Shown here piece by piece: positions 8,409 through 15,482 of a stretch of 25,801 nucleotides of DNA. Every line of letters begins with the position of its first letter. Positions within the stretch are counted from its first letter, which is position 1. The position numbers were made by a program, and so were the translations under genes. The notes under the pieces were generated by a model. The model was given only the letters and a program-made list of their open reading frames with translations. It was not told the DNA's origin and ran no database searches. Source of the stretch: a virus (lineage: Duplodnaviria > Heunggongvirae > Uroviricota > Caudoviricetes); the IMG/VR virus record IMGVR_UViG_2582581315_000004, positions 1 through 25,801 of that record. One strand, 5' to 3'.

Positions 8409-8674
8409 TCCTTGGCCTCGAAAATTGAATCGCGAAGATCGGCGTCGATGAAAATTGTGGTCGCATCAACGGTCACGTTGACGCCATGCGAGCCGCGGAG
8501 ATCTGCGCCGGTGAAGTCGAACCCGCGCAGATCGCAGTTGTTGAAGTCGACCCCACTTAGGTTGGCGTGGCGAAAATCGTGTTTCCTATCGAGGCCGGCC
8601 AAATCGCAAAGCACCACGAAGTTATCTGTCTCGGATTCGATGATCGCGACCGCTTTTTGCTCAAGACCCATCAT
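8405..8674 (-). CDS. Pentapeptide-repeat protein (89 aa)
   Basis: FRHAN LSGVD FNNCD LRGFD FTGAD LRGSH repeats; ATG8674 overlaps the upstream TGA. Confidence 0.75.
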   Translation of the reverse strand: MMGLEQKAVAIIESETDNFVVLCDLAGLDRKHDFRHANLSGVDFNNCDLRGFDFTGADLRGSHGVNVTVDATTIFIDADLRDSIFEAKE

Positions 8675-9468
8675 ACCGCGATCCTTTCGATGTTCTCTTT
8701 GACGACGGTGAAGGTGTAGGCAGCGACAAACGGGTTTCTGCCCCAGGAGCCAGGCCCGTTGATTTCCTCCCAAAGGCAGGAATAGGCTGTCACGGGGTTT
8801 GCAGTGCCCGCGGCGTTCTTGTGTTCGGCGGTGAACCACCAGAATCCAGGACGGATTTCGATGAGCCCTTCAGCGATTGCATCAGCTGCGCTAATGTCCT
8901 GGAGGCGTTGCACCCTGACCTCGGTCACGAGCAATGTCAGACGTGATGCCCATTTCGGCATGAAGCGAGAGTTGCGTAGTTTTCCGAAGGGTCGAAGATC
9001 GTCTCTTTCGTCGTCGAACAGATAATCGATGCCGCCCTTGGTGATCGCGAGGCCGCCACCTGCCTCGTAGGCTATGCCGGCGCCGCGGTCCTGATCTTTC
9101 GACCACACCTCCGAAGGCTTAAGGTTATCCAGGCTGACGAAGGTGCGCCACCCTTCCTTCACCCACAACCGGTCGCCCTTCTCGATCCGAAGACGTCCGA
9201 GCCATTGGGACATCACTGCGCCGCTCTGATGCGGCCCCGGATCGGCCACCCACGCTATCCGACCTTCGATCGCTCGAAAATCTCTTGCGTTGTTCATGGC
9301 GGCATCGAACATATCCGCGTCCGGCTTTACATATCGGCCGCCGTGGTCAAGGCCGCCGGTCCAGACCCGAAGACTTCTTGGCGACAGCTCGCGCCTCGTG
9401 TTCGTCTTCCGATCTTCAAGGAGAGAGCGCACGTTTAGAGCCGACATGGTGATGAACTGGTCAGCCAT
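8671..9468 (-). CDS. ASCH/PUA-like phage protein (KTxTRR family), 265 aa
   Basis: NVRSLLEDRKTNTRR, DRLWVKE.W, FMPKWASRLTL.VTEVRVQRLQDIS..DA.AEG, LW..ING..SW..NPFV; ATG9468 with GGAGAAGGAG SD. Confidence 0.8.
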   Translation of the reverse strand: MADQFITMSALNVRSLLEDRKTNTRRELSPRSLRVWTGGLDHGGRYVKPDADMFDAAMNNARDFRAIEGRIAWVADPGPHQSGAVMSQWLGRLRIEKGDRLWVKEGWRTFVSLDNLKPSEVWSKDQDRGAGIAYEAGGGLAITKGGIDYLFDDERDDLRPFGKLRNSRFMPKWASRLTLLVTEVRVQRLQDISAADAIAEGLIEIRPGFWWFTAEHKNAAGTANPVTAYSCLWEEINGPGSWGRNPFVAAYTFTVVKENIERIAV

Positions 9469-9883
9469 TCTCCTTCTCCCACTGCTTGCGCCAGTCGAAG
9501 AAGCCGAGCGCGCCCTTGACTTTGATGAATTCGACGGGGCGGGGGTCGCGTATGACAAAGCCATAGATACCCTGGAACCACTCGTTGTCGCTTTCGGTCA
9601 CGCAATCTACGAAGTCAGCGACACCGACTATACCGCCCAATCCGAAACCCTCATCGGGGAGCAGAGACCGTAAATCTAATTCGGTTCCTTGAACGGGGTG
9701 ATGGCCGTCTAGCAAAGCTCTTACGCAGCCATAGTCGATGGATTGACCTGCGTGGATCGCGACACGCCCGCGATAACCCTTCAAGGTGTCTCGATTTTCT
9801 ATATCTTTGAGACCATGGACAATTAACCACGCCCATGGTTGCCGGATCGAGAGGGCGAAACGGGGAAGTTCGGGATAGATCAT
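9461..9883 (-). CDS. ASCH domain protein
   Basis: ALSIRQPWAWLIVHG.KDIENR, YRG.VAIHAG, GGIVG....VDCV, WF.G.YGF, KG.LG.F motifs. Confidence 0.88.
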   Translation of the reverse strand: MIYPELPRFALSIRQPWAWLIVHGLKDIENRDTLKGYRGRVAIHAGQSIDYGCVRALLDGHHPVQGTELDLRSLLPDEGFGLGGIVGVADFVDCVTESDNEWFQGIYGFVIRDPRPVEFIKVKGALGFFDWRKQWEKENG

Positions 9884-10500
9884 CCCTTCACCTCGCTCTT
9901 CTTCACCGCGTGCGCATACATTCCGTCCTCAACACGGGCCAGGCCCTCGATCCGGAGCGGAAAATCGCCAGCCAACAGCTTCTCAGTAGACACCCACGCC
10001 CTGCCGGGCCGGAGCGCCGCGTACGGTTGATTCCACGTGGATCCTGCATTGACGTTATCGGCCTCGAAGATCTCCGAGCGACCAGGCGTCAGCCATGGCC
10101 CGAAGATACGCTCTCCGGCCTTTCGATCGGGGTTGCGCTTCTCCAGCAGTTCCCGCGGTCCGGTCATGCGGGCCGTCGTGCGGCACATGCTGCCGGAGCA
10201 TTCAAAGCCGTCGTGTTCGATCAGCGTCCAGTCTGGGGTGACAACGCGAATAATGAGCGTGAACACGCTGCAGAAGTCGTAGCCTTCATCTTTTCGATTG
10301 TAGAGCGGCCGAAGGATCATCACCTCGACTGGCTCTCCGACTGGAGGCGTTGGCGCTCCTTTCTCGAAAAAACATAACTGTCTGTCGATGAAGGCGATCA
10401 CCTGTCCTGGCTTCTTCTTTGAATCCTTCGGTACCACCACCAGGCGCGCGTATTCAGGCACCGGCAGAGGTGTTTGCGGCTTGTAGGGATCGTTCGTCAT
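9880..10500 (-). CDS. Hypothetical protein (206 aa)
   Basis: ATG10500 overlaps the upstream TGA; contains [12 protein letters not shown]; the track extension to 10779 overlaps the PurA-like gene. Confidence 0.75.
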
Positions 10501-11696
10501 GCCGCTTCCTTTCCAATCACGGATATGTTTTTCCTTGCAGGCCCATAGCTCATCGACCGGATCGGCAATCCAGTTCGAACGGAGATGTTTTCGGCGAGTT
10601 TCGCTCGAGCGATCGTTGTCTGGCGTCCGCCGACGTGCACGTCTGCCGTATCTGCAATTTGATCTACGCACGTGATTGCGATGGTGCGCTCTGTGTGAAA
10701 CCCATCGATGAAATCGGCCGTGATGGCGTCGCGCAGACGATCGATGTTCAAATGGCCAAAGCGCATCGTTCCTTGCCACGGATTGGGCATATTGGTTCGA
10801 TCCTCATAGGAGAGGCCGTGCACAGGATCGAACGGGCCTTCGCCGTGACGCGTCGAATATGCTCGGGAAACATAGATCGTCGCGGCGGGTTCGATACCTG
10901 CCTGGTTGCATATCGAGCGGATGTTATGGCTGCCCGTGCGTGCACGGGTCACATGCGGAAAATCTGGACTGCATTCGTCTAGCAGAAGTCCTTGTGATCC
11001 TTCGAAGACGACGTGCTGAGTTCCACCCATGACGTTCACGTCGCATAAACGCGTTCCCAGGCTGAAACATTCCGAGGCATAGCAATAGTCATCGATGACT
11101 TTGCCCTTATAGATGGCTTCGTGGATCGGCGCGGGGAGGGTTTCCAGCCCAAGTTCATTCATCCGCCACGGAAGGTAATGTTCTTTGAGGAACATCAGCC
11201 AGTCGCGCAGCTGCTTCGGGTGCTGCAGGATCGCTGCATTGCCATGAAATTCCTTATTGGTATGCTCGTTCCTCGTGACCGTCTCATTGATGCCAACGCC
11301 GCAGGAACCGTGGCGCAGCATGCCTCGGCCGATTTCCAATGCCTGATTGATCGCTATATCGATCGGGGTTGTAATCGGCGATTGGCTGTCGACTAAGAGG
11401 AACGGAAAGAGGCCCTTGGAATTCAGTTCTGTCAGCTCCTTCAGCCACAGGATTGGATTGCTAATGAAGAAGCGGGAGAGATAGGTTTCCGCGCCGGCGA
11501 ATGTGCCGGATCCAAAGTGGGAGAAGACATGGCGCAGACCGTCGTCGCCCATCACTGTATGACCGGCGTTCGCACCGCCGCTGTATCGGCAGACAAGCGC
11601 CGTATCGCTCGTCGACGAGACCACGTCATGAACGATCGATCCTTTACCTTCATCGCCCCAAAGGGCTCCAATGACAGCGGTGGCGCGCATAGCCAT
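10497..11696 (-). CDS. Divergent adenylosuccinate synthetase-like (PurA-fold) GTP-dependent ligase; not PurZ
   Basis: [61 protein letters not shown]; the Asp-binding loop is replaced by [16 protein letters not shown]; AAGGAG SD. Confidence 0.9.
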
Positions 11697-11713
11697 GCCT
11701 TCTCCTTCTTCGG

Positions 11714-12604
11714 TTAGAAACGAACGACGCCGGTGCCAGCGCCAGACTTCGTCAGGCCGTTGACCGCGGTGGAGACCACGAGCGACGTGTCGCCGCTCCA
11801 GGAGCTGACGACCGCATTGACGTCACGGCCCTCAATGATCTCGATGGTCGAGACGATGACTTCGGCCAGCTTTTGGTGATCAGTGACCTTGATGGAACGT
11901 TCGCCAAGCAGCGTCGCCCAGCTGGACGCGTCGTATCCGCCCGGGTTGACGATGAGATGGAACACCTCCCAGAGCTGCGACGCGGCCGCCAGGAGATCTT
12001 TTGCCGAATAGTCCTTCTCGACATCGTCGCCGAAGATGCTCTTGATCTGGTCCTTGGTCAGCGTGAGATGAGGAGGCTCGTCGCCGATGGTGAAGAGGTA
12101 TCCCTTCTTGTTGCGCTTCATCATGGAGTCGCACTTGGTCTTCATCGCTGCGAAGTACCAAGCGGCGAGGTAGGATTCGCCGCCATTGCCGCCGCCGCCG
12201 CCCTCAAGCCAGAGCTTTTCGACTTGTTCTGCCAACACGATGCTCGCCTCGAACTGCGTCACCTGCAGCGGAGCCGTGTCGCAGAAGCCGTCGCCGATTG
12301 CAGCGCAAAGAACATGCGGGTCCGGTATCGGCTTGCGGTCATAGATCTCCTGCATGATCACGCCGAGGCCTTTTCTGACGATGTTCTCTGCGAGGATGCC
12401 CATGGAGCCCGTGACGTCCACCGCCACGATAACCGGTGTCGAGTTCGGATTTGCCTCGGAGTCGACAGACTCGCGAACCGATATCGAATTCGGGTTGAGC
12501 GCCGGGTTTATTGCCTTGCTCGTGAAGATCTGCTGCTGCGTCTTCGACTGAGTGGTCGACTGGTACGATCCCCAATCGCTCGCATCCCAACGGGAGCTAC
12601 CCAT
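11714..12604 (-). CDS. von Willebrand factor type A (vWA) domain protein
   Basis: MIDAS-type [32 protein letters not shown]. Confidence 0.88.
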
Positions 12605-13630
12605 TCACTTCTCCTTCTCAAAAATGTCGCTTGCGGTAATCTTGAGATCGACGAAGCGACGGGCGCCGAAACTCTCGCCAATGGCTTTTTGCCAGTTGGC
12701 GTAATCTTCGCGGGCACTTGGAGACGCCGGCGAGCGCAAGAACCGTACCATTGGTTCAGGTGCCAGGCTGCGGAGCGTCATCCCTGTGGGATCGCCGAGC
12801 AGTGACCGCCCGAGCAGGCGAATGGATGCCGTATCAATGATCGGGCTTGCTTTCTTCTCGCGAAGAACGTCAGGCGGAGTCACCGAATGAATTGACCTTG
12901 GGAGCGCCCGCAGCTTCTCGCCTACCGGGGTGGCGTACCACCATCCCCCATAGAGCATGACGCTGTGATGTTTGGGCGAGACGAAGACGCTGTCGGGCGT
13001 GATGCCTCCATGGCACAAGCCTGAGAATTCAAAGTAGCATGCGATGTTGTAAACGCCGCTCATCACCCAGGCGACGTGACGCGGATCGATCGCCCCGCCG
13101 AGATGCAGGCGGACGTCGTCCAACATGAAGACGTCGTCAGTCTTTGTCAGGACAAGCCCAACGCTTCCATCGGCGCATTTATGGACGCCGGCGATGGACG
13201 GGAGATACTTTCGCATCTCGGTTTCCATCCGCTCGCTGGCGAAATTCAACTTCGCGACGCGATCCTGGACGCTTTTCGTCAAATCGGCGAAGCCAGACGA
13301 GATCTGCCACAACAGTGCGGATCTGCCATAGAATGACTTGCCTGCCTCAATCGATCGTTCCATTTCGAAGCGAACTCGAAATGAGCGCCCATCCGCAGCC
13401 CTGATCGTTATGACCCCATCTTCGCGCCAGGTGCCCTGCTTAACCTTGTCATGGGCGATAGTGCGTAGCGCGGACAAGTGCGCTGTGACCTTGGTTGCCG
13501 CGACATCAGGATTGGTGTCCGGATGCCATTCCCGCGCTAGCGCCCGGAACTCCTGATCGATCACGGTCGGTGCCGAAAAGAGGCGTTCCGGCCGATCAAG
13601 TGGAATGGAAAGGATTTCGTCAGCGGTCAT
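12605..13630 (-). CDS. Truncated J-domain (HPD) fused to a protein-kinase-like fold, likely pseudokinase
   Basis: N-terminal FRALAREWHPD; C-terminal HVAWVMS...LCHGGITPDSVFV....H.VMLYGGWW resembles the catalytic loop and Mg-binding segment but lacks both Asp residues. Confidence 0.75.
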   Translation of the reverse strand: MTADEILSIPLDRPERLFSAPTVIDQEFRALAREWHPDTNPDVAATKVTAHLSALRTIAHDKVKQGTWREDGVITIRAADGRSFRVRFEMERSIEAGKSFYGRSALLWQISSGFADLTKSVQDRVAKLNFASERMETEMRKYLPSIAGVHKCADGSVGLVLTKTDDVFMLDDVRLHLGGAIDPRHVAWVMSGVYNIACYFEFSGLCHGGITPDSVFVSPKHHSVMLYGGWWYATPVGEKLRALPRSIHSVTPPDVLREKKASPIIDTASIRLLGRSLLGDPTGMTLRSLAPEPMVRFLRSPASPSAREDYANWQKAIGESFGARRFVDLKITASDIFEKEK

Positions 13631-14640
13631 CAGTGCGCGACAACCAATTGATGACGATACTGCCGGAAGCCGACGAAATTCGCGTGCTCCCAGCTGTGAG
13701 CCCAGCGCTCACCCGTCCACGAACCATCGTACGCAATCGTCCGGCCATCAGCCTGTGCCACGTGCTCGCACGGTGAGGCGTGGATAGGCCGGCTGCCGAC
13801 GAGCTTGTCATGCAGTTCGATGGCGCGCTTCAGCGTCATGTCGAAACCGTCGACTGTCTTGTAGGAAGTGCTCGCGCACCGGGCTACGGATAGCTTCTTC
13901 GCCGCATCCAGGAACACTTCTTCCGGAATGTGGGCGCCGGAGGTGTCGCTGTCATCCAGGTACGGTGCCATGATCTCGGCGTCGACCTGAGCGCGATCAA
14001 CGAACGGCAAGTGCCATTGGCCTGGCTGCAGCACCTGCATGGCAGGTTTTGCAAGCTCTGCTCGGACCGCGCGCGCGAGCATCGCGATATGGGGTTCCGC
14101 GTCGCCATGGTCCCGCAGTTCGAGGAAGTTCAACCACTCAGTTGCTGACGCGAGAACCTTGATATGCATATAAGGTTCCAGGATTCTGTTGACGATCTGC
14201 TTGTGGGCACCGATAAGCCGTTCTTCTTCATCGATTCCCAGGCGGCACATCTCTGTGGCATAGGCGATCGCGCTTTCCATCGAGCGCATCCAAATATCGT
14301 AAGCCAGCTGGCGCTCCGCCGGTCCGAGCTCTTCCTTCGCCTGCATGCCGGCTATATTTTTGCCCCAGAACAACGGCACCGCCGGGTCTGCCCGTATTGC
14401 TTCGATCATCTTGGCGACGGGGATCGCGCGGCTCGACGCCGCATTGCGAGAGAGGAACGGATCTTCCATGGGAGCCGGCGTGAACACCAGAACCTCCATG
14501 TCTTCAGCTATGCGAAGAATTCGATGGGTGCGGCCTTCGGCGTGGATCCATCGCGGATACGTCCAGAGCTGCGTATCGAGCCGCGCGTTCGCGCTCGCGT
14601 GTTGGCTGGAAAGAATTGTTTCGGCGGAAATGGTTGTCAC
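13630..14640 (-). CDS. thyX: Phage-type FAD-dependent thymidylate synthase (ThyX-like) with an insertion in the signature motif
   Basis: YPRWIHAE..THR...SRNAASSRAIPV, HKQIVNRILEPY, NFLELRDH..AEP.I, SVARCA..SY, HASP.EH.A, NF.GF.QYR. Confidence 0.83.
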   Translation of the reverse strand: MTTISAETILSSQHASANARLDTQLWTYPRWIHAEGRTHRILRIAEDMEVLVFTPAPMEDPFLSRNAASSRAIPVAKMIEAIRADPAVPLFWGKNIAGMQAKEELGPAERQLAYDIWMRSMESAIAYATEMCRLGIDEEERLIGAHKQIVNRILEPYMHIKVLASATEWLNFLELRDHGDAEPHIAMLARAVRAELAKPAMQVLQPGQWHLPFVDRAQVDAEIMAPYLDDSDTSGAHIPEEVFLDAAKKLSVARCASTSYKTVDGFDMTLKRAIELHDKLVGSRPIHASPCEHVAQADGRTIAYDGSWTGERWAHSWEHANFVGFRQYRHQLVVAH

Positions 14641-15482
14641 TGGCGAGCTCCTGCTGATGCGATGACCTCGTGCACGAATTCTCGCGCATTGAGCTTCAGA
14701 GCTTCGAGATCGGAATGATTTGGGATGATGCAGTCGTACTGGAAGTTCTCGACCTCCCGATCCGCCGCATTGCTGTCAACACGTTCTGCATCCGGACGGT
14801 CGACGAAGACCGTCAGGAATTCATTGGACGCGATGGTCTTCATGAAGGCGATCGCATCTGGCTCGCGGACATGAATGAAGCCGATCTGGAAATCGTGCGC
14901 CGACTGGAACATCTGGTGTTCCATCCTGTGAATGATCAGTCGCGAAGCGAAGCGATCAAACTTTTCGAACGCCGCCTTTATCTCGGCCCAAAGAGCGCGC
15001 TTCTCCGGAGTCTTCGGTTCGTCGGCGATCCCAGCATCTTGGGTGATCTTCTTGGCGAAGTCGATGGAGCTCATTGCATATGCGCGCCAACCCATCCAAG
15101 AGAAATACTCTCCGGCAAATTCGACGAATTTGTCTTTGCCTGCGCGCGGATAACCGTTCACAATCACGATGACTCTGCCCGGCCCATTCACTCGACTGAA
15201 CACCTTCATTGATCGTCTCACCTCGATGGCATTGCGCCTGGAGTTGTCTGTATCAAGGGAGGGGCATCGGCGGATTTCTCCCATCCGCAGCGCCCGCTTC
15301 CATAGCGGCCAAGAGCTAGCGCCCTTGGTGTAGAATTCTCTGGCTTTCCCTTCGCGATCCAGCCAATAAGAGTGCAGGTTCCCGCGCCGATCGCGCGTGA
15401 ATTTGACAGTCCCTCGGCTGAGCATTGCTGCTCCAAAAGCCACGATGAAGCAGTTCGCCGGAAACCGAACCGGCGCTCGCAT
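14637..15482 (-). CDS. Phage dNMP-kinase-like P-loop protein with a ~91-aa N-terminal extension; probable internal start at 15209
   Basis: IVNGYPRAGKD P-loop, SSID..K, FIHVREPD.I, N.AD..V.NFQYD.II.N; GAGGTG SD upstream of ATG15209. Confidence 0.72.
   Translation of the reverse strand: MRAPVRFPANCFIVAFGAAMLSRGTVKFTRDRRGNLHSYWLDREGKAREFYTKGASSWPLWKRALRMGEIRRCPSLDTDNSRRNAIEVRRSMKVFSRVNGPGRVIVIVNGYPRAGKDKFVEFAGEYFSWMGWRAYAMSSIDFAKKITQDAGIADEPKTPEKRALWAEIKAAFEKFDRFASRLIIHRMEHQMFQSAHDFQIGFIHVREPDAIAFMKTIASNEFLTVFVDRPDAERVDSNAADREVENFQYDCIIPNHSDLEALKLNAREFVHEVIASAGARQ

Follow-up and report, generated by a model that had tools for sequence, protein, structure and literature searches.

A PurA-like protein of a tailed-virus provirus belongs to a third, vWA-linked clade of the adenylosuccinate synthetase superfamily and may act in NAD+ metabolism

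A provirus of the class Caudoviricetes (IMG/VR record IMGVR_UViG_2582581315_000004) carries a gene that resembles purA, the gene for adenylosuccinate synthetase, and in which the aspartate-binding loop has been replaced. What would such an enzyme do for a phage? The record is 113 kb long and estimated to be 87% complete. The window analysed here is its first 25.8 kb (25,801 nucleotides), in which the gene lies as follows.

10497-11696, minus strand: PurA-like ligase of 399 residues, from a third, von Willebrand A (vWA)-linked clade of the adenylosuccinate synthetase superfamily (PF00709, AlphaFold2 and Foldseek, trees)

On balance, and with modest confidence, we favour a catalytically competent PurA-fold ligase that acts with a vWA partner in the metabolism of nicotinamide adenine dinucleotide (NAD+) and ADP-ribose, and that is not an adenylosuccinate synthetase.

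The homology to adenylosuccinate synthetase is genuine, and the PurA fold is full-length. Its Pfam match (PF00709, E 7e-35) covers positions 1-273 only of the 416 in the profile, and E. coli PurA is matched in the PDB at E 5e-20. An AlphaFold2 model built on 50 relatives has a predicted local distance difference test score (pLDDT) of 93.1 and a predicted template-modelling (TM) score of 0.92. In the structural comparison to E. coli PurA and phage PurZ that the first-pass annotation had proposed, Foldseek superposes this model on the long bacterial PurA of E. coli and Bacillus anthracis over the whole length (TM 0.77-0.78), and more weakly on archaeal PurA and on PurZ/PurZ0, the enzymes of Z-base synthesis (TM 0.62-0.65). 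The motifs that matter for the active site are given below, with coordinates verified by translation.

11640-11657, minus strand: P-loop GDEGKG, retained (Asp15 = E. coli Asp13, Lys18 = Lys16); alignment, 100% in the clade and in canonical PurA
11556-11570, minus strand: NAGHT loop, retained (His46 = E. coli His41), with Asn43, which is Gln in 95% of the clade; alignment
11271-11315, minus strand: rebuilt nucleotide 5'-phosphate loop, in place of E. coli (A)IGTTGRGIGPAYEDK; alignment
10989-11003, minus strand: EGSQG motif; translation
10944-10961, minus strand: FPHVTR, in which Thr250 (= E. coli Thr239) is kept and is followed by a new Arg251 (E. coli Ser240); alignment
10761-10802, minus strand: rebuilt second-substrate loop, in place of the aspartate loop GATTGRRRR; alignment
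10662-10673, minus strand: TCVD in place of the guanine-specificity motif TKLD, with Asp345 kept and the Lys replaced by Cys or His across the clade; alignment

For the active site, an alignment of 91 relatives with the same gene context and 77 canonical PurA sequences was read at the positions where E. coli PurA contacts its ligands, with roles taken from the crystal-structure literature. Asp13, Lys16, His41, Gln224, Thr239 and Arg306 (E. coli numbering) are kept at 99-100% in both groups, and the first five of these are each at 100% in the 91 clade members. The catalytic Asp13, Lys16, His41 and Gln224 correspond to Asp15, Lys18, His46 and Gln235 of the window protein. Asp333 is kept in 92% of the clade and the SxGP motif is largely kept. 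Judged by this alignment, the phosphotransfer half-site is intact.

The L-aspartate site is different. Arg131, Thr300, Thr301, Arg303 and Arg305, conserved in canonical PurA at 90%, 66%, 97%, 100% and 100%, have all been substituted across the clade: Arg131 by Val, Leu or Met, Thr300 by Phe, Trp or Tyr, Thr301 by Gln (100%), Arg303 by Thr, Ser or Lys, and Arg305 by Leu, Ile or Phe. In the window protein they read Val134, Trp307, Gln308, Thr310 and Met311. Gly298 has become Asn or His, and Arg312 (= Arg306) is all that is kept from the canonical loop; within the new loop, Asp299, Thr301, Asn302 and Gln308 (window numbering) are invariant and position 307 is aromatic. The formerly cationic aspartate pocket would now be neutral, its walls made up of aromatic, hydrophobic and amide side chains. 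The nucleotide site has changed as well. Thr128 is Ser and Val273 is His in every clade member, Asn38 is Gln in 95% (the window protein keeps Asn), Thr129 is Cys in 79% and Val in 19%, Ser240 is Arg in 76%, Arg143 is lost, and Lys331, which contacts guanine in E. coli PurA, is Cys or His. At the 5'-phosphate site of inosine monophosphate (IMP), the window protein keeps the equivalents of Thr239 and Asn38 (Thr250 and Asn43) and has Cys for Thr129; Arg143, contributed by the other subunit in E. coli, is not conserved, and an invariant Arg142 and the new Arg251 lie close by. The new basic residues on the phosphate side are Arg128, His129, Arg251 and His284, and in a 50-sequence alignment His129, Ser131, Glu138 and Arg142 of the 5'-phosphate loop are invariant. 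The rebuilt loops are under strong purifying selection across the clade, whose motifs (R)HGS[CVT]G, FPHVTR, TRHG, D-x-T-N-x-x-[NH]-x-aromatic-Q-G and T[CH]xD are all present in the window protein. We considered and rejected Cys132 as a catalytic residue, since about 21% of the clade have Val or Thr there. The first-pass annotation had read from this one protein that the Asp of GDEGKG, the His of NAGHT, the Gln of EGxQG and the Thr of HVT were retained, that the G.TTGRxRR loop had been replaced, and that GTT and TKLD had become GSC and TCVD. Each of these observations holds at the verified coordinates, and the retained residues and the lost aspartate ligands hold throughout the clade.

A place outside both known classes, which the annotation had also claimed, is borne out by profile scores and by phylogeny. 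The two NCBIfam purA models give 94.9 bits against a cut-off of 395.55 (TIGR00184) and 97.9 against 402 (NF002223), about a quarter of the required score, and the PurZ model NF038379 gives 32.6 bits against 300. In a FastTree phylogeny of 125 sequences, a branch support of 98 sets off a group in which 89 of 91 rows are vWA-linked. With IQ-TREE (53 sequences), the vWA-linked, canonical PurA and PurZ/PurZ0 sequences each fall on one side of a branch, with Shimodaira-Hasegawa-like approximate likelihood ratio (SH-aLRT) supports of 100, 97 and 99, respectively. The clade is very large. A search of 1.84 billion representatives of 50%-identity clusters returned 2,744 clusters at E <= 1e-30, some ordinary PurA included, and the best 150 of them share about 38-49% identity with the query, most over nearly the full length. 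The separation and size of the clade, and the conservation of its rebuilt loops, support the annotation's proposal of a third specificity class.

The distinction from PurZ is plain at P-loop position 13, where the window protein has GDEGKG, phiVC8 and pB23 have GSTGKG, and PurZ0 has GSEAKG. That PurZ carries Ser in place of this Asp and uses aspartate as donor had been stated in the annotation; it agrees with an alignment of phiVC8, pB23 and three PurZ0 sequences, and with a survey of 481 PF00709 homologues in NCBI viruses, in which all 147 PurZ/PurZ0 have Ser13 and the remainder was left undescribed (PMC12884076). The window protein belongs to this non-PurZ remainder. The phages found by tblastn with phiVC8 PurZ and with the window protein form sets without overlap. 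Known phages with clade members include Mycobacterium phage Bxz1 (gp250, NC_004687), Rhizobium phage RHph_TM30 (gp019, NC_070966) and Vibrio phage Va1. RefSeq and PHROGs (phrog_1211) label many relatives as '2-aminooxy adenylosuccinate synthetase', among them those of Bxz1, RHph_TM30 and many cluster C mycobacteriophages. Given Asp13 and the position of the clade, this PurZ label is probably wrong.

The strongest clues to the purpose of the enzyme come from two proteins that the first-pass annotation did not mention, a vWA partner and a J-domain pseudokinase. Their genes and the PurA-like gene, which is the last of the three, form a tight module.

12605-13630, minus strand: J-domain and kinase-like protein of 341 residues, HPD at 13517-13525 (family profile against PDB; phrog_3043 'kinase')
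11714-12604, minus strand: vWA-like partner of 296 residues, metal ion-dependent adhesion site (MIDAS) DVTGS at 12404-12418, N-terminus MGxxRWDxxDW (AlphaFold2, Foldseek, phrog_2971 E 6e-44)
11701-11706, minus strand: Shine-Dalgarno sequence AGGAGA, 4 nucleotides before the ATG of the PurA-like gene and inside the 17-nucleotide gap that follows the vWA stop codon

The J-domain gene abuts the vWA gene, and 17 nucleotides separate the end of the latter from the PurA-like gene. A scan of genome contigs with the single sequence gave no relative, and the loci were found with an alignment-based scan. When the 80 best IMG/VR loci are compared with 76 canonical purA loci from bacterial genomes, 78 of the former and none of the latter have a vWA gene immediately upstream and in the same orientation; of the two viral loci that lack it, one is at a contig end and the other is without a match. 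The vWA-like gene has no Pfam match, and its family profile also found nothing among PDB sequences. Its AlphaFold2 model (pLDDT 90.7) resembles, by Foldseek, integrin beta I-domains, the vWA domains of Ku80 and collagen VI, and Sec23/24, and on this modelled fold the partner is a von Willebrand A domain. The MIDAS is intact: Asp63, Thr65, Ser67 and Asp175 are invariant in 38 vWA relatives. The N-terminus MGxGRWD is conserved too, with Met1 invariant and Gly2 in at least 90%.

For the J-domain and kinase-like protein, the family profile matches J domains (E 2e-7) and protein kinases (E 1e-3) in the PDB. HPD is invariant in the family alignment, and the kinase-like part is without the HRD and DFG aspartates, so that it is likely to be a pseudokinase. 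This gene stands upstream of the vWA gene in 32 of 74 motif-typed loci (36 loci over the whole set). In 24 others its place is taken by a protein of about 250 residues with a beta-rich N-terminal part and a low-complexity tail rich in Met and Gly, examples being L151:4447-5100, L008:2744-3535 (RHph_TM30 gp016), L007:3231-3956 (Va1), and genes in gut Clostridiales and Bacteroidales genomes. The Met/Gly-rich partner has no Pfam match, and the ESM Atlas holds no structure for it or for the vWA protein, only unnamed clusters. One homologue of 715 residues (P0266, on a single 4.2-kb contig) is a natural fusion of vWA and PurA-like parts, the former aligned with the vWA family by hhalign at 100% probability; as a single member it may be an assembly or frameshift artefact. 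Six homologue clusters of 800-840 residues (P0141, P0267-P0271) contain a LAGLIDADG intein near residue 40, beside the NAGHT loop. The 828-residue P0141 had been considered a domain fusion, which was rejected, the extra sequence being the intein. Such a site is typical of essential catalytic motifs, and we count it in favour of catalytic competence. Full-text literature searches, including those with NrtR, with von Willebrand and phage, and with NARP4, found no account of a vWA/PurA-like module.

Where the module occurs in bacteria, its neighbours point towards NAD+. The vWA profile detects it in 4 of 401 sampled Pseudomonadota genomes, and at all three newly found chromosomal loci of this phylum a divergent gene for a regulator with Nudix and NrtR winged-helix domains lies beside the vWA and PurA-like pair (PF21906, E 1e-18 to 6e-21). 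One of these regulators matches the NCBIfam model for an ADP-ribose-responsive repressor at E 1e-45, well under the 400-bit equivalog cut-off. The flanks of these loci are unrelated to one another (argG, SDR, LysR, MscS, LysE, pyrF, beta-lactamase). A Clostridiales locus reads, on one strand, NrtR, a PncB-type nicotinate phosphoribosyltransferase (TIGR01514, 429 bits against a cut-off of 270), a small partner, vWA and PurA-like, and on one bacterial contig PncA, PncB, NadD and NadE genes adjoin the module.

Phage loci show a similar tie. The published NAD+ reconstitution pathways (NARP) of phages include NARP1, made up of Adps and Namat, and NARP2, made up of Nampt and NMNAT-Nudix; about 1.1% of sequenced phages are reported to have NARP2, and 5.4% for NARP1 and NARP2 together (bioRxiv 10.1101/2024.02.11.579819). 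In four phage loci (L143, L151, L167 and L121) the order is NMNAT-Nudix of the NadM/NatV type, small partner, vWA, PurA-like and a Nampt-family gene, so that the module lies within a NARP2-type operon. One or both NARP2-type genes are found at a distance of <= 6 kb in 15 of the 80 viral loci. Among 50 whole module-bearing viral contigs, 19 have PF04095, 21 have PF01467, 15 have both and 6 have a Prs-like gene. PF04095 is present in 10 of 24 contigs with the kinase-type module, which is the type of the window, and in 9 of 26 others.

In the window itself, the PurA-like gene sits among tightly packed genes for replication and recombination, in a long block on the minus strand (SbcC-like ATPase, PDDEXK exonuclease, RecT-like protein, exonuclease subunit, beta clamp and a ThyX-like gene), which continues farther downstream with a Dda-like helicase and DUF5131. 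The stop codon of the PurA-like gene shares an ATGA overlap with the start of an open reading frame (ORF) of 206 residues (9880-10500, minus strand), for which Pfam, PHROG and PADLOC give no match; in 169 other loci, no homologue of it accompanies the module. Beyond it, an ASCH-domain protein (phrog_3193; 9461-9883, minus strand) and a phrog_874 protein (8671-9564, minus strand) are called as ORFs that overlap by about 100 nucleotides, and their start codons are uncertain. On the upstream side of the module are a divergent ThyX-like gene (13630-14640, minus strand; phrog_85 E 6e-62, Pfam Thy1 at just 19.8 bits, under the cut-off), which shares 1 nucleotide with the next gene, and a 281-residue gene with a weak deoxynucleoside monophosphate (dNMP) kinase match (14637-15482, minus strand). 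These two may point to modified pyrimidine metabolism in this phage. As members of the module they were rejected, with no co-occurrence in 169 loci. A catalogued defence system was likewise rejected, PADLOC having no match for the six genes tested.

How might the enzyme work? In the mechanism that we favour, a nucleoside triphosphate (NTP), probably GTP because Asp345 and the SxGP motif are kept, would pass its gamma-phosphate to an oxygen of a substrate that itself bears a phosphate; a nitrogen nucleophile would then displace the transferred group. Dicarboxylic amino acids would not serve as this nucleophile. With four cationic or hydroxyl ligands gone and aromatic, aliphatic and amide side chains in their place, the pocket would suit a neutral species, for example ammonia or nicotinamide. 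The enzyme would act together with the upstream vWA/MIDAS protein and, in this phage, also with a J-domain pseudokinase that would recruit host DnaK. In bacteria the module would be under its own regulator of the NrtR type, a family known to sense ADP-ribose, and in phages it would often work within or alongside the NAD+ salvage genes of NARP2. In this prophage it would most likely contribute to the recovery or protection of NAD+ in the infected cell, and phage counter-defence is a likely function. Two reactions can be sketched speculatively. One is the amidation of nicotinate mononucleotide (or nicotinate adenine dinucleotide) with ammonia to nicotinamide mononucleotide (NMN) or NAD+, which would feed the NMN-specific NMNAT encoded next door and bypass the host nicotinamidase. 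The other is the phosphorylation of the terminal ribose of ADP-ribose followed by the attack of nicotinamide, giving NAD+ in one active site as a one-enzyme analogue of NARP1. It is a tentative and somewhat doubtful proposal that the vWA and PurA-like pair forms a one-enzyme NAD+-rebuilding system, in which GTP would phosphorylate either ADP-ribose at its anomeric hydroxyl or nicotinate mononucleotide at its carboxylate, and nicotinamide or ammonia, respectively, would displace the phosphate in the former aspartate pocket.

Several points weigh against a role in NAD+ metabolism. The vWA, J-domain and Met/Gly-rich partners are not obviously needed by a small-molecule enzyme and point to a protein substrate or a regulated complex, and neither of the two reactions explains them. 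Asp13 and Gln224, which act on the lactam N1-H/O6 of IMP in PurA, suit a 6-oxopurine no less well than they do a carboxylate or a hydroxyl of ribose, and the pocket as described is that of an alignment to E. coli PurA read with contact lists from the structural literature. PF04095, PF01467 and PF00293 are all absent from this phage record at its 87% completeness, and a Nampt-family gene is absent from 13 of 20 near-complete module-bearing phages; a phage NAD pathway is therefore not an obligatory setting for the module. The enrichment was measured mostly in large phages, which are richer in auxiliary genes generally, and the loci are not phylogenetically independent.

One alternative, which takes the annotation's inference of a different nucleophile at its word, keeps the purine. 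The enzyme may still phosphorylate IMP (or dIMP, GMP or dGMP) with GTP and take ammonia, a neutral amino compound or a non-aspartate amino acid as the amine. The product, AMP or a purine nucleotide substituted at N6, would serve to repair the purine pool or to make a new DNA or nucleotide modification; we regard this as a minority possibility. The residues of the IMP lactam and 5'-phosphate (Asp13, His41, Gln224, Thr239) are invariant, the gene lies in a block for replication and nucleotide metabolism beside the ThyX-like and weak dNMP-kinase-like genes, and PurZ offers a precedent in which the nucleotide was changed and the chemistry kept (PMC12884076). Those neighbours, however, are not conserved with the module (0/169 loci); the conserved ones are the vWA protein, the pseudokinase, NrtR and NAD salvage genes. 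At the IMP phosphate site the clade does not preserve Arg143 and Asn38, and the pair occurs on its own under NrtR control in bacterial chromosomes, where DNA hypermodification is unlikely. A reading in which IMP is the substrate and only the nucleophile differs is probably too narrow, because the phosphate site has also been remodelled and the family is tied to NAD+/ADP-ribose and not to purine or DNA-modification genes. A different alternative, which we consider unlikely, is a protein-directed enzyme that joins a nucleotide to a protein amine, such as that of the conserved Met-Gly start of the vWA partner, or that has an ADP-ribosylated protein to process, with the partners serving as adaptors of the peptide-binding or chaperone type. 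To our knowledge no enzyme of the PurA superfamily acts on a protein, and a position inside NARP2 operons better suits a soluble metabolite. On the other side, each of the three accessory proteins belongs to a type that binds proteins, the N-terminal MGxGRWD of the vWA protein shows unusual conservation, and the natural fusion suggests physical association. Such an enzyme would also parallel the predicted NrtR-regulated systems of ADP-ribosylglycohydrolase (ARG) and vWA, in which vWA domains are seen as peptide-binding chaperones under NrtR control in an ADP-ribose setting (PMC9503650).

It is improbable that the protein acts only as a switch for the vWA partner, either without catalysis or with NTP hydrolysis alone, comparable to MoxR-vWA or BchI-BchD pairs and with its former substrate pockets turned to regulation. 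The invariant set extends beyond the NTP site to Gln224, Thr239 and the rebuilt second-substrate loop, the pattern of a two-substrate enzyme. In favour of a switch, vWA proteins are commonly paired with NTPases, and here a vWA gene accompanies 78 of 80 loci. MoxR-vWA pairs have been noted in jumbo phages (PMC7824862). Very improbable indeed is an ordinary adenylosuccinate synthetase (an auxiliary purA) or the PurZ of a 2-aminoadenine phage, to which the PF00709 match, the phrog_1211 label and the same label on the Bxz1 and RHph_TM30 relatives would point. Against it stand the NCBIfam scores (98 bits against 402 for purA, 33 against 300 for PurZ), the replacement of all five aspartate-site residues, Asp13 where 147 of 147 phage PurZ have Ser (PMC12884076), a clade apart from both enzymes, and the separate phage sets found by tblastn. 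A part in Kongming or dITP counter-defence was considered and rejected, the preprint naming a dNMP phosphatase and not a PurA-like enzyme.

With PurA (EC 6.3.4.4; 1ADE, 1CG0-1CG4) the window protein shares the full-length fold, the P-loop Asp and Lys, the catalytic His, Gln224, Thr239, the guanine-binding Asp333 and SxGP, and the expected type of chemistry, in which an oxygen is phosphorylated and the phosphate then displaced by nitrogen. It differs, as does its clade, in the replacement of all aspartate-binding residues, in the loss of Arg143, in Gln at Asn38, His at Val273 and Cys or His at Lys331, and in having a vWA partner and NAD-linked rather than purine-linked neighbours. PurZ/PurZ0, the N6-succino-2-amino-2'-deoxyadenylate synthase of Z-genome phages (6FM1, 7ODX, 7VF6), is likewise a phage-borne offshoot of PurA with an altered choice of substrate, and shares the database label. 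PurZ has Ser13, uses aspartate as donor, is short (about 340-380 residues) and archaeal-like, and travels with DatZ, MazZ and DpoZ (PMC12884076, PMC8342488), whereas the window protein is of the long form, carries Asp13 together with a rebuilt donor loop, belongs to a different clade and reaches a TM of just 0.62-0.65 with PurZ.

The NARP systems resemble the module in being phage-borne and linked to NAD+ recycling, and in several phages the module lies between the two NARP2 genes. NARP1 also parallels the chemistry proposed here, with an oxygen activated by phosphorylation and displaced by nicotinamide. In contrast, PurA-like, vWA and J-domain proteins are all missing from the published pathways, and this phage carries none of the NARP genes; NARP3 (published 2026) consists of PnuC and NadR and is unrelated to the PurA-like module. 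Also comparable are the NrtR-regulated systems of ARG and chaperone (vWA, SseB, TY-Chap) predicted by Iyer et al. 2022 (PMC9503650), in which a Nudix-winged-helix regulator stands beside a vWA protein and an enzyme whose presumed substrates are related to ADP-ribose. Those systems use ADP-ribosylglycohydrolase and phosphatases and are proposed as host defences, unlike the window module, which has a PurA-like ligase and is mainly phage-borne.

The PurA superfamily has so far been credited with two activities, AMP synthesis and the Z-base synthesis of PurZ/PurZ0, and the clade described here would be a third. The vWA/PurA-like module is new to the literature as far as searched, and the PurZ labels on clade copies could yield false predictions of 2-aminoadenine genomes. 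Through its links with NARP2 genes and with a family of regulators that sense ADP-ribose, the clade takes a place in the NAD+ arms race between phages and bacterial defences, a field in which new pathways continue to be discovered. If true, a one-enzyme NAD+ route would be a fourth phage pathway of NAD+ reconstitution against NAD+-depleting defences, and bacteria would gain an ADP-ribose-induced repair step. Since the module is small, its catalytic residues are clear and the list of candidate substrates is short, its function is directly testable.

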